From a virus, in IMG/VR virus record IMGVR_UViG_3300024358_000010: 64,000 bases of DNA; one strand, 5' to 3'. Below are positions 29,532 through 33,530 of this stretch, in pieces. The position numbers were made by a program, and so were the translations under genes. Under the pieces are notes generated by a model that searched no databases, was not told where the DNA came from, and saw only the letters and a program-made list of their open reading frames with translations. Within the stretch, counting starts at the first letter, position 1. Each line of letters starts with the position of its first letter.

Positions 29532-31058
29532 TCAAAAGGTCCATATAAAACCGCCGTCCGACCCTTGATCTTCGTTATCCTCTATATCAGACAGCCTTCC
29601 TATTTTACCCATCTTATCCAGGTTAACTTCCGGATTAAACGGAATGTTGTTTACCTTAGCGTACTCTTCAGGTGTGGGCGGTTTAAAGAAGCTGCCGGTA
29701 GAATCAACTAATTTAGCCATGTCTACGTCTAAGCCAGCCGAAGAAAGGATGACAGCTGACTTGCTGAATAAATTAGTCATCGCATAGCGCAAAGCGTCAA
29801 TCCAGTGATCGTGCTCTGTATCAGGATCATCCGTGATTTGACCTGATGCATCTACTTTGTAATGGTAGAGCTGGAACTCCCTTATCAAGGGCTGACAAGT
29901 TTCTTGTGCAAAAAATATCTTTGGCTCCCCGGTTCCTGGGACTTTTAACCATTTCTTTATGACCTGGATGCCAGTGTTTACTTGGCCCTTGTCAGTGTTA
30001 GTTGATGTGGGAAGACCGAGCTTTCTCATCTCGACTGCGTCACCCGGATCGGCTTGATCTGGGAAGTAGAGCTGAACCCGATAAGCCTGGTGCCACTTAT
30101 TCTTGACGTGGTGCATCCAGGCAGGTCGAGATATGTACGTCATACCGTCGCATCTGACGACGTAGATGTTTTCCTTAGAGTCTACGAAAAAAGTTACCAA
30201 AGTATGAGGGTTAGACCATCCCCAGTCGATACCCGAGTATGCTGGCAAACCCATTGCTAAACATTTCTTAACAAAGATATCGTGATTGCACTCGCCAGGA
30301 AATTCCTTGCCGGTAAGAGTGAGCCACATCTGATTCCATGTCCTGACGTGCGTACGCTCATCAAATTCCTTAAACACAATTCCCTCAACTGATGGTTTAA
30401 GATTCATCAGCTGTGACATTGCCCAATCAGGACCTTCGGAAAGTATCTTCTGGGCAAGTTCGTCAATCGACTTGAGCATCGGCGATGTGGATGTTTGATT
30501 TTTGGCGTCACCTAAGCAGATTGGCGCAAGAGGGCACTTGTGGCAACCAGAATACATCTCGTACGGCGCGTAGTCTTTTTTCTTCTGCTCGCTGAGTTTA
30601 TTGTATTCAGACGGAAGACGCATGTCGAATGAATTTTGGTCGATATAGTATTCTTGCTTAGTCGTACCGGATCTAGAGTCTGGGCAGCGCTCAGTAAACT
30701 CGAACGCGGTCCAGCGGCGAACATGTCTCCCCTGCTTCTCGGCATTCTCGATGGCTTGATTCATTAGCCCGTATCGAGATTTTCTAGTTGAGATACCCAC
30801 TCTTAGCGGCTTCTTGCCCCGCTTGGAGTCGAGCATACCAGATATCTCTTTGTATGCCTTTAATCCTTCGCCAGAAACTGTGTCGATTTCATCGACCACA
30901 ACCAGCGGTACGTGAGGTCCGTTGCAGTTGTGATTTATAGTGCCATCGATCGTAACAAATGAATTAGACATCGGATTTGTCGGATCCGAATTAGAACGAA
31001 CCTCAAGTTTCGCTATTTGTTTGACACCGGTTCGCTCGAGCTTTTTAATTTTAGCCAT
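29532..31058 (-). CDS. terL: Terminase large subunit, C-terminal part, preceded by split-intein C fragment (IntC)
   Basis: Residues 1-44 end ...GTINHN, then C. Extein has Walker B VVVDE, ISTR motif, GIDWG nuclease motif and DHWIDALRYA. Confidence 0.9.
   Translation of the reverse strand: MAKIKKLERTGVKQIAKLEVRSNSDPTNPMSNSFVTIDGTINHNCNGPHVPLVVVDEIDTVSGEGLKAYKEISGMLDSKRGKKPLRVGISTRKSRYGLMNQAIENAEKQGRHVRRWTAFEFTERCPDSRSGTTKQEYYIDQNSFDMRLPSEYNKLSEQKKKDYAPYEMYSGCHKCPLAPICLGDAKNQTSTSPMLKSIDELAQKILSEGPDWAMSQLMNLKPSVEGIVFKEFDERTHVRTWNQMWLTLTGKEFPGECNHDIFVKKCLAMGLPAYSGIDWGWSNPHTLVTFFVDSKENIYVVRCDGMTYISRPAWMHHVKNKWHQAYRVQLYFPDQADPGDAVEMRKLGLPTSTNTDKGQVNTGIQVIKKWLKVPGTGEPKIFFAQETCQPLIREFQLYHYKVDASGQITDDPDTEHDHWIDALRYAMTNLFSKSAVILSSAGLDVDMAKLVDSTGSFFKPPTPEEYAKVNNIPFNPEVNLDKMGKIGRLSDIEDNEDQGSDGGFIWTF
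30927..31058 (-). other. Split intein C-terminal fragment (IntC, 44 aa)
   Basis: MAKIKKLERTGVKQIAKLEV...SFVTIDGTINHN followed by Cys+1. Confidence 0.85.
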
Positions 31059-31125
31059 ATATCACCTGGGTATATAGATCCCATGTCTAGTATCTATATA
31101 CTCAAAATGATAAGTATTTATAGTT

Positions 31126-32025
31126 TTATAGACCGTGATGATGTTTAAAATGTGCAACACCGCGATCTACGACCGCGTCTTCGTGTGCTTTCAATTTACG
31201 TAGATCGCCACTCAGAGCATCTTCATACGTACTAGAAACCTTGTCGTTAAGCGCCTCGTGGCGAGCTGTTGTCGCGTCGTCTTTAGGTTTAGCGTTGCTA
31301 TTATCGTACTCGTAATAAAGAATATCACCGGGGGATGTAGCAGAAACAGTCTTGTGATGACCGTATGCGCCCAGATTCAAAGCTTGAACATCGCCAACTA
31401 GATGGGGTTTTAGTGCCAAATTGTCGTGATCGTGAAAAACAGTAGGACCATGTTTGCCCTCATGATAAGGATCGATATTTGCTCCTATTGCTCTACTTAA
31501 ACCCTTTACAGCCTCAATGCCGTGATGATCATGCACATCTTTTAAATTTTTAACAGAATCATCCAGATGACGATCAAAGGCATTGCGTAGATCTTCATGA
31601 CTAAATCTTAGTCCACCATGATGGGGCATATCTGAGGCTTTAAAAGCATCTGCAGCCTTATTTTGCAAGTAACTAAGGTGCCCTAAATCAATGGATCCAG
31701 GGCTAGCATTGTTTACTAAATCTCTTATAGCACCAGAATGCTGCTGCAACGCCCGCGGAGACTTAGCATCAAGAGCGTCGTGATAATCAGCAAACATTTT
31801 ATTAAGTTTAGCATTGTATTGAGTTTTGTTAGGTGCAGAATTCGCATCCACACAGGTGTAGTGGTGCATTTTGTCGTTTCTCATAGAGCCACCGCATATA
31901 CATGCGTTTTGAGAAATATGAGGTGCTTTTTCCCATATGGCTTTACTTAAAAGCTGCCATTGACCGTTTGATTTTACGAGCAATTCTTCTTTGTGCGTTT
32001 TTAACGACTTGATTAAATTATTCAT
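31126..32025 (-). CDS. His-rich hypothetical protein with NGQW / LxKA head-type leader, located inside the split terL locus
   Basis: MNNLIKSLKTHKEELLVKSNGQWQLLSKA. Confidence 0.65.
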   Translation of the reverse strand: MNNLIKSLKTHKEELLVKSNGQWQLLSKAIWEKAPHISQNACICGGSMRNDKMHHYTCVDANSAPNKTQYNAKLNKMFADYHDALDAKSPRALQQHSGAIRDLVNNASPGSIDLGHLSYLQNKAADAFKASDMPHHGGLRFSHEDLRNAFDRHLDDSVKNLKDVHDHHGIEAVKGLSRAIGANIDPYHEGKHGPTVFHDHDNLALKPHLVGDVQALNLGAYGHHKTVSATSPGDILYYEYDNSNAKPKDDATTARHEALNDKVSSTYEDALSGDLRKLKAHEDAVVDRGVAHFKHHHGL

Positions 32026-32557
32026 ATCGATCTCTTGGTGGCTTTGTTTTCAAATTTAAAAAATTAAAGAAATCGTTTTCGCTTTTAAATGTCAACTTTT
32101 CATTGGTTGATTTAATCAATATAAAAGCTGGATTTTTCCACGACATTCCTTGACTTTCAAGGCTGTTTCTAATTCTACCATTATGGGCAGCCGACCCGGT
32201 TGCAAAAACTAAAACATTTCCAAGGTTTTCATCAGTGTACGGAAATATATCTAATACTATTATCTTTCTTATATTAAAAAATTTAATCTTTTTAAGATAC
32301 TGTCTGCTAAGAGTTGCATTGTGATTTCTCATAGGGTTCAGGAACCAGCCCATGCTTTTCATTTTAGAATCAAGATCTTGCATAAGATGTGCTGGAATTA
32401 CGAGATCGATATCGCCGCAAATAAATTTAGATCTCCTATACGAACCTGCGATTAGGTATCCGTTTATGTTAAGTTTAAAAGTTATAAACTTTACAATAAG
32501 ATATACGATAAATCTTGGTAATTTTAATTGCAAATTATTTGGCACCGATATAGCCAT
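32018..32557 (-). CDS. Minimal DNA polymerase X-family nucleotidyltransferase (palm and thumb only)
   Basis: IAGSYRR...GDIDLVI, third Asp in LDIF, FATGSAAHN, ENDFFNFLNL..KPPRDR; 179 aa. Confidence 0.8.
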   Translation of the reverse strand: MAISVPNNLQLKLPRFIVYLIVKFITFKLNINGYLIAGSYRRSKFICGDIDLVIPAHLMQDLDSKMKSMGWFLNPMRNHNATLSRQYLKKIKFFNIRKIIVLDIFPYTDENLGNVLVFATGSAAHNGRIRNSLESQGMSWKNPAFILIKSTNEKLTFKSENDFFNFLNLKTKPPRDRYE

Positions 32558-32582
32558 AATGCACTCTCTAATATTAATAATA

Positions 32583-33530
32583 TTAAATCGTTATAACGTC
32601 ATCGATATCAGTAAGATGCTGCAATTCTACCCAACCTCGTTGAGTCCAAACCTTATGGTCAAGCGTTCCTTCGATTATTCTTCCATCTTCTAACTCTACT
32701 CTGACACATTCCGCATCTTCAAGTTGATTGTCTATTACTTCAACAAAACCAATAGTATTTTTAATTAAATCCCCTGGTTTAAAATCCGCTAATATTTTTG
32801 GCACACCATTGCCATCGATTGACATAGTACAAGAAGTTAAACAGGCTTTTAATGTGCATGGAATCACTTCAAGTGTGACCTTCTCACCCGTAACATTAAA
32901 TACCGATTTTTCCATCGTAAATTTTTCAAGAATACGGTCGGCTTCTTGTGTTTTAGGTGGCAAAATTAACGGTTTAATTCTGTCGGACATCAGAAACTTT
33001 TGCTGATACTCGTAGCATCGTTTTGCCTGTGATAGAATCGCACCCACATGAACAACATCGCGCTGATCGTGCAAAAGTATTAGAAGTTCGGCGATAGCCA
33101 TGCCAAGTGTTTTTCCAGAGCCCCTACCGGCAACGTATAGCAACTCTTGCACATTTTGCGGATTATCGTTGTTAACGCAAATATTATAAGCTTCCCATAT
33201 CGCGTGAAAAGGCGTCGTATCCGCATAGCGGGAAACCTTGCAATCTGGCAGCTGGAGGTTAAAAAAGTATTTAATATAGTTCTTTAGATCTTTCTCTGTT
33301 CGGCACGGCGTAAGAAAGATCTTTTCGAGCTGCGCCATTGTCAGGTGTGCGGCTCTCTCAGACATTCTCTGAGAAGCTTGCTGCTGCTTTGCGACCTTAG
33401 TTAAGGCCGTCTGCTCGGCGCGCTTCTTAGGAAGCTCGATAAACTTCTTATAATGGTTGCCGCAGTAACCTTTTGCCTTGATCGGCTTACCGCACCCGGT
33501 GACTGAGCAAAACTTAGACTCGTCACTCAT
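32583..33530 (-). CDS. terL: Terminase large subunit, N-terminal part, fused to split-intein N fragment (IntN)
   Basis: Walker A AGRGSGKT and ILSQA motif; residues 230-315 are IntN. Confidence 0.9.
   Translation of the reverse strand: MSDESKFCSVTGCGKPIKAKGYCGNHYKKFIELPKKRAEQTALTKVAKQQQASQRMSERAAHLTMAQLEKIFLTPCRTEKDLKNYIKYFFNLQLPDCKVSRYADTTPFHAIWEAYNICVNNDNPQNVQELLYVAGRGSGKTLGMAIAELLILLHDQRDVVHVGAILSQAKRCYEYQQKFLMSDRIKPLILPPKTQEADRILEKFTMEKSVFNVTGEKVTLEVIPCTLKACLTSCTMSIDGNGVPKILADFKPGDLIKNTIGFVEVIDNQLEDAECVRVELEDGRIIEGTLDHKVWTQRGWVELQHLTDIDDVITI
32586..32843 (-). other. Split intein N-terminal fragment (IntN, 86 aa)
   Basis: Block A CLTSCTMS, FKPGD, block B IEGTLDHKVWTQRGWVELQHL; acidic C-terminus. 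Confidence 0.88.

Follow-up and report, generated by a model that had tools for sequence, protein, structure and literature searches.

The virus record IMGVR_UViG_3300024358_000010, analysed here over a stretch of 64,000 nucleotides (64 kb, hereafter the window), belongs to a large uncultured phage of roughly 150 kb that resembles Myxococcus phage Mx1, and encodes its large terminase subunit (TerL) in two separate genes instead of one. Very probably, a functional naturally split class-1 intein breaks this TerL, in the arrangement known as a fractured gene, and the two parts of the enzyme are joined after translation by protein trans-splicing.

Both genes lie on the minus strand, at 33530-32583 and 31058-29532, as established by a six-frame listing of open reading frames (ORFs) with translation. 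The first one carries the N-terminal extein and the N-terminal half of the intein (IntN): its junction ...TLKA|C falls at residues 229/230 and 86 further residues precede the stop codon. In the second one, 44 residues ending with HN, the C-terminal half of the intein (IntC), precede Cys45 of the C-terminal extein (H43-N44|C45). Joining the exteins in silico gives a TerL of 693 aa (229 + 464). As expected for a fractured gene, the two parts are truly separate ORFs, with a stop codon after IntN and, for the IntC-TerL gene, its own AGGTGAT Shine-Dalgarno sequence located 2 nt before the ATG. The genes are 1524 nt apart, with Walker A on the first and Walker B on the second, and the intein site lies 7 residues upstream of Walker B. 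A first-pass annotation, made from the letters of the sequence, had proposed these two ORFs, their junctions, the sizes of both intein halves and of the spliced product, and the distribution of the Walker motifs over two genes 1.5 kb apart; the ORF listing and translation bear out all of this.

Exteins and junction compared with intein-free terminases

The spliced protein aligns with the contiguous 667-aa TerL of Mx1 over 669 columns (28% identity, E 1e-63) without any gap at the junction, and the C-extein is colinear with Mx1 TerL through the last residue. The N-extein also aligns to the N-terminal part of the contiguous TerLs of L008 and L020-L036, and the C-extein is 92% identical to that of L008. 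Among 45 related viral contigs, 25 encode a contiguous single-frame TerL with nothing between the extein parts. The more distant contiguous TerLs read LEV[LI]PCTLKA|CNGPHVPLVV, i.e. the predicted spliced junction, and a protein search found PCTLKACNGPH in 90 contiguous proteins. At the DNA level, the flanks of the intein site match the flanks of intein-free loci. The comparison with intein-free TerLs that the first-pass annotation had put forward as a check thus came out in its favour, the product being colinear across TLKA|CNGP. The element has the defining property of an intein, an in-frame insertion absent from orthologues, with exteins colinear across the site.

IntN and IntC co-occur in all 14 loci that cover both regions, and neither is found in the 25 intein-free loci. 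The two-gene architecture itself recurs in 14 related viral loci, with identities ranging from 55 to 96%.

That the broken protein is a TerL is indicated by its Walker A/B ATPase, its RNaseH-like nuclease, the adjoining portal gene and its full-length homology to the protein of Mx1, the sole isolate phage with a full-length TerL match.

The residue that follows the junction is a weak signal of the intein as such, since intein-free relatives mostly carry Cys at this position too, with the exceptions of Val in 4 proteins, Leu in the L008 group and Ala in Mx1. The closest intein-free alleles (L008, L009, L010 and L012-L014; 92% in the C part) read TMRA|L, not TLKA|C, and also differ by several nucleotide changes in the flanks. 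TMRA|L may be a homing-resistant target site.

Identity of the two intein halves

The residues expected to carry out splicing are kept across a large and diverged family. Block B of the window IntN reads T289-L-D-H292, i.e. the TxxH motif of class-1 inteins. In an alignment of 46 IntN clusters (A1), Cys1 and the block B His occur in 46/46, and the Thr of that block in at least 90%. In the matching alignment of 31 IntC clusters (A2), E19, the terminal Asn and Cys+1 are invariant (31/31), Cys+1 being also present in all 32 IntC-bearing genes found by pattern. The halves are 83-93 aa (IntN, more than 45 diverged clusters) and 39-46 aa (IntC, more than 30 clusters) long. They also display the complementary charges typical of split inteins: as the first-pass annotation had noted, the window IntN is acidic and IntC basic, with net charges of -10 (family mean -7.4) and +3 (family mean +2.1; across the family, the first 18 residues of IntC average +3.9).

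Profile searches place both halves among known inteins. Among solved structures, the A1 profile matches gp41-1 first (E 1.2e-6), then DnaE (3e-3), NrdJ-1, DnaB and RecA inteins, and the A2 profile aligns with the 36-aa IntC chain of Npu DnaE starting at residue 1 (4lx3_B, E 0.0028). Against a library of 1.84 billion protein representatives, A1 matched 3255 proteins; all ten sampled matches carry Pfam Intein_splicing/Hint domains, most of them at the matched stretch. Several of the sampled matches lie at the extreme C-terminus of their protein, which suggests that they are other split IntN halves.

Structure prediction agrees. The AlphaFold2 (AF2) model of IntN has a predicted local distance difference test score (pLDDT) of 90.6, and all its listed Foldseek matches in the PDB are HINT domains, the best one being gp41-1 (E 3e-3, probability 1.00, query-based TM-score [TMq] 0.47), with MchDnaB, Msm DnaB, hedgehog, BIL, NrdJ-1, Npu DnaE and RecA among the others. 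The E value is modest, and a TMq of about 0.47 is expected, since IntN makes up about two thirds of a HINT domain. When IntN and IntC are modelled together, the interface score ipSAE is 0.62 versus 0.00 for the best of three controls (the mark applied to this score is reached by 58 of 80 solved complexes and by 2 of 110 mismatched pairs). Partner pLDDT is at least 69 and contact agreement between runs at least 94%, and the halves are modelled as one interlocked domain. The HINT fold proposed as a check by the first-pass annotation is therefore found in the models, although the score of the complex may partly reflect memorised likeness to known structures, since split-intein complexes have already been solved.

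Purifying selection acts on both intein halves: while synonymous sites are close to saturation, the ratio of nonsynonymous to synonymous changes per site (pN/pS) is 0.19-0.44 in IntN and 0.13-0.42 in IntC.

The position of the break can be read from relatives. Protein P0098, a contiguous allele at this site of TerL, has a LAGLIDADG_2 domain between an N part that matches A1 (7.7e-15) and a C part that matches A2 (3.4e-9). In P0097, a LAGLIDADG domain is still fused upstream of IntC. In P0053, IntN continues in frame into an HNH-type motif, and the same apparently holds for P0062, where the evidence is weaker. Because the contiguous homologue carries its LAGLIDADG domain precisely there, with support from the three other proteins, the break corresponds by alignment to the canonical endonuclease-insertion point of an intein.

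Proposed trans-splicing and alternative explanations

In the mechanism that we infer for every step after translation, the two TerL halves would be translated separately, then IntN (acidic, 86 aa) and IntC (basic, 44 aa) would associate to form one HINT domain. Cys1 would perform an N-S acyl shift, Cys+1 would attack in a transesterification and the terminal Asn would cyclise, leaving the exteins joined at Ala229-Cys230 as the 693-aa TerL. Walker A and Walker B would then be united in one ATPase domain, and DNA packaging would be expected to depend on trans-splicing.

Several observations weigh against this reading. In some members of the family (A2), A, K, L or R takes the place of the penultimate His, which is present in the window copy. 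At the block F position, where DnaE and gp41-1 have Asp, the alignments suggest Lys or Gln in the window intein. Compared with PDB sequences as a single sequence, IntN gives only E values of 0.15-1, though almost all of its matches are inteins, and IntC gives no match; the homology to inteins becomes significant only with profiles. In line with this, a single-sequence Pfam scan gives no intein match on either TerL gene. Finally, the search for a second intact TerL covered only 64 kb of the genome.

The variable penultimate His would also suit a TerL acting as a two-subunit enzyme held together without covalent bonds, in which the intein halves have lost splicing and serve only as a high-affinity dimerisation handle. 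Split-intein halves do bind tightly and the modelled complex is confident. However, Cys1, TxxH, the terminal Asn and Cys+1 are kept across clusters that are only 40-50% identical, and a handle needs none of them. Moreover, an unspliced HINT domain of 130 aa, only 7 residues away from Walker B, would lie within the core of the ATPase, and the inteins of mycobacteriophage TerLs at such sites were judged incompatible with assembly of the pentamer (PMC5050341). This explanation is therefore quite improbable.

A functional split TerL is also to be preferred to a decaying relic in a phage whose DNA would be packaged by another, intact terminase encoded elsewhere in the genome. The limited span of the search leaves room for such a gene, but no second IntN, IntC or TerL-like ORF was seen within the 64-kb window, the exteins are under strong purifying selection (pN/pS 0.03-0.3), the genes occupy the conserved place, also found in Mx1, with the portal gene on one side and small upstream genes on the other, and the arrangement persists across lineages down to 55% identity, all of which makes a relic very improbable.

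Lastly, that the two-gene appearance is an assembly or frameshift artefact of a normal cis intein, a concern raised by the metagenomic origin of the sequence, is hardly conceivable, given that at least 24 contigs drawn from separate JGI and ENA samples carry the identical locus, that 1.5 kb with two complete unrelated genes separates the halves and that the IntN stops of more than 45 clusters fall at one position, give or take about 10 residues.

Comparison with known split inteins and terminase inteins

Phage genes fractured by split inteins, one of them a terminase, have been on record since 2009 (Dassa et al., PMC2677866). The window locus shares with them a phage enzyme gene broken by a split intein, free-standing gene(s) between the halves, a break at the endonuclease-insertion point (which holds for every split intein of that study except one, PMC2677866) and an acidic IntN facing a basic IntC. 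Compared with the published ranges (IntN 88-105 aa, IntC 33-54 aa; PMC2677866), the window IntN is just below and its IntC within. Some relatives of the window carry free-standing HNH-type homing endonucleases in the gap, like the fractured genes of 2009, whereas the gap of the window holds a PolX-like gene and a gene of no known family, with no recognisable endonuclease. The only terminase locus of Dassa et al. was gp17-like and had an unusual split point with a 122-aa IntC (PMC2677866).

Two TerL split inteins have been characterised, GOS-TerL (IntN 37 aa, IntC 115 aa) and AceL-TerL (25 and 104 aa), both atypically split (PMC11766414). Like the window intein, they are naturally split class-1 inteins with Cys at +1, were found in metagenomes and interrupt a phage large terminase. 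They are set apart by their published half sizes: the window intein has a canonical 86/44 split, well away from the atypical lengths (IntN 25-37 aa, IntC 104-122 aa).

The closest solved relative, by profile and by fold, is gp41-1 (PDB 6qaz, 6riz), which is also of phage origin and of similar size (128-residue solved chain versus 130 aa). The two are only about 25% identical and the host protein of gp41-1 is a DNA helicase. Trans-splicing by gp41-1 has been used and measured experimentally. The inteins of Npu and Ssp DnaE share the split point, as the IntC profile aligns from Met1 of the Npu IntC, and the Cys1 plus Cys+1 chemistry. Unlike them, with a cyanobacterial chromosomal host gene and halves encoded far apart, the window has both halves 1.5 kb apart in one block of phage late genes.

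Cis inteins of mycobacteriophage TerLs, of which five tested representatives spliced (Kelley et al. 2016, PMC5050341), likewise cluster in the ATPase domain, within or adjacent to the P-loop and Walker B (PMC5050341), and relatives of the window also have a cis intein in the P-loop (GK|T). These elements differ from the window intein in being contiguous and in interrupting actinophage terminase_1/terminase_6 proteins, and the word 'split' does not occur in that paper (PMC5050341). In the open literature, we found no paper on a naturally split intein together with a terminase in metagenomes and none on the Mx1 terminase.

In the light of these systems, two claims of the first-pass annotation have to be lowered. 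At 86 + 44 = 130 aa, about the size of gp41-1 (128 residues), the intein is not distinguished by being compact. The novelty that was implied is also smaller, fractured genes including a terminase being known since 2009 (PMC2677866) and GOS-TerL and AceL-TerL being described (PMC11766414). What is new is modest: the split of this TerL intein is canonical (86/44), its host is an Mx1-like TerL, its site precedes Walker B by 7 residues, its family is large and diverged, and its gap cargo is not an endonuclease (a minimal PolX and a gene of no known family). The finding bears on the model of Dassa et al. for gene breakage and the origin of split inteins. In addition, the clusters related to gp41-1 (more than 45 for IntN, more than 30 for IntC) are candidate new trans-splicing tools. 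The finding also matters for annotation: the terminase of such phages is spread over at least two ORFs and may be overlooked or wrongly called.

Genes located between the halves

Among relatives, the gap between the two genes is 761 to 2555 nt long and varies in content. A free-standing endonuclease gene occupies it in L002, L003, L006, L017 and L037: a 306-aa HNH/EndoVII-like ORF whose sequence overlaps that of the IntN gene at its end (L002, L017, L037), or an HNH/homing endonuclease of 550-567 aa (L003, L006, L037; PHROG E 2e-38). L019 carries a trypsin-like peptidase in the gap. The window and L015/L016 carry a 179-aa PolX-like protein and a 299-aa protein of no known family.

In L002, the HNH/EndoVII-like ORF (1485-2405) starts inside the 3' end of the IntN gene (641-1621), in another frame, with an overlap of 136 nt. 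From its sequence, this overlap looks like a halfway state between an in-frame endonuclease domain and an independent gene.

The 179-aa protein of the window matches Pfam DNA_pol_B_palm and DNA_pol_B_thumb and NCBIfam PolX; compared with the palm and thumb of Pol lambda, it keeps GDxD and the third catalytic Asp. Its size is comparable to that of African swine fever virus (ASFV) Pol X, which has 174 aa. The 299-aa ORF has no match in Pfam, PHROGs, NCBIfam or PDB sequences and no usable neighbour in the Atlas; a homologue, 35% identical, lies in the corresponding gap of L015/L016. No recognisable endonuclease was found in the gap of the window in Pfam, PHROGs, NCBIfam, PDB or Atlas, and in this respect the locus departs from the fractured genes of Dassa et al. 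Because its gap is devoid of such a gene, the window copy is probably no longer mobile by itself.

The diversity of these contents (PolX and a gene of no known family here, a trypsin-like protease in L019, endonucleases elsewhere) also invites a bolder reading, in which the fixed gap of the split intein is a protected landing pad for accessory genes, and the separate translation of IntC, from a ribosome binding site (RBS) enclosed in a hairpin, a post-translational timing switch for terminase assembly. Were it true, trans-splicing would be regulatory and not merely tolerated; we consider it rather unlikely. The hairpin itself is stable (-20.5 kcal/mol, z -3.5, none of 200 shuffles folding as well), but relatives whose gap holds different genes lack it, and this absence rules it out as a part of the intein system as such. 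The number of sigma-70 promoters at the locus equals the shuffle expectation, and terminator-like sites number 8, versus 4.4 +/- 2.1 expected.

Locus context and feature coordinates

The portal gene lies directly downstream of the TerL-C gene, and a metallophosphoesterase gene and three small genes lie upstream of the split TerL; this gene order matches that of Mx1. The identical N-gene protein, seen on the contigs mentioned above (the longest of 153,984 bp), occurs in 98 blocks of independent JGI/ENA assemblies with the same gene order. The locus is thus neither a product of chance nor a misassembly, an outcome that the first-pass annotation had named as fatal to its proposal and that is excluded because the identical locus was assembled independently many times. 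The features of the locus are listed in Table 1.

Table 1. Features of the split terminase locus in the window (positions in the 64-kb window)
Feature	Position	Strand	Basis
TerL-N gene, 315 aa: N-extein and IntN, own stop codon	32583..33530	-	ORF listing, translation
N-extein, TerL residues 1-229, N-terminal part of ATPase domain	32844..33530	-	alignment to Mx1 TerL residues 13-200
Walker A / P-loop AGRGSGKT, residues 134-141 of the first gene	33108..33131	-	read from sequence
IntN, 86 aa, Cys1 = residue 230, block B T289-x-x-H292, net charge -10	32586..32843	-	
Gap cargo 1: 179-aa minimal family-X DNA polymerase-like protein, palm and thumb only	32018..32557	-	
Gap cargo 2: 299-aa protein, no family assigned	31126..32025	-	
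Intergenic hairpin, 3' arm over the AGGTGAT Shine-Dalgarno (31067-31061) and the IntC-TerL start codon	31055..31123	-	RNA fold
TerL-C gene, 508 aa: IntC and C-extein	29532..31058	-	PHROG TerL families E 2e-22; Pfam Terminase_3C
IntC, 44 aa, ends His43-Asn44, basic N-terminus	30927..31058	-	
C-extein, TerL residues 230-693: Cys+1, Walker B, remaining ATPase, RNaseH-like nuclease	29535..30926	-	
Walker B LVVVDE, residues 52-57 of the C gene	30888..30905	-	read from sequence; aligned to Mx1 FMVLDE

Residues 5-38 of the TerL-N gene (33417-33518, minus strand) form a zinc-ribbon-like segment, Cys-x4-Cys ... Cys-x2-His, that is similar to the N-terminal region of HNH endonuclease families of phages (phrog_5351, E 2.9e-6) and is devoid of the HNH catalytic motif. 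The segment is limited to a clade of about 80% identity, and more distant TerLs, like that of Mx1, start after it.

Further inteins in the same terminase family

In addition to the split site, which is the only one occupied in the TerL of the window, inteins are found at three further sites of the same TerL family (L006, L010, L011, L017 and L037-L044; proteins P0014, P0054, P0068, P0085, P0091 and P0108). The first one is an insertion in the P-loop, GRGSGK|C...SHN|T, between K and T of Walker A, where the cis inteins are either full-length forms of about 423 aa or mini forms of 131-139 aa. The second one, VPL|C in P0108, is located 8 residues downstream of the split-intein site. The third one, after spliced residue ~453 in the nuclease half, is occupied by a LAGLIDADG_3 intein of 372-378 aa. 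As read from their genes, phages of the L037 type would need two cis splices and one trans splice for each TerL.

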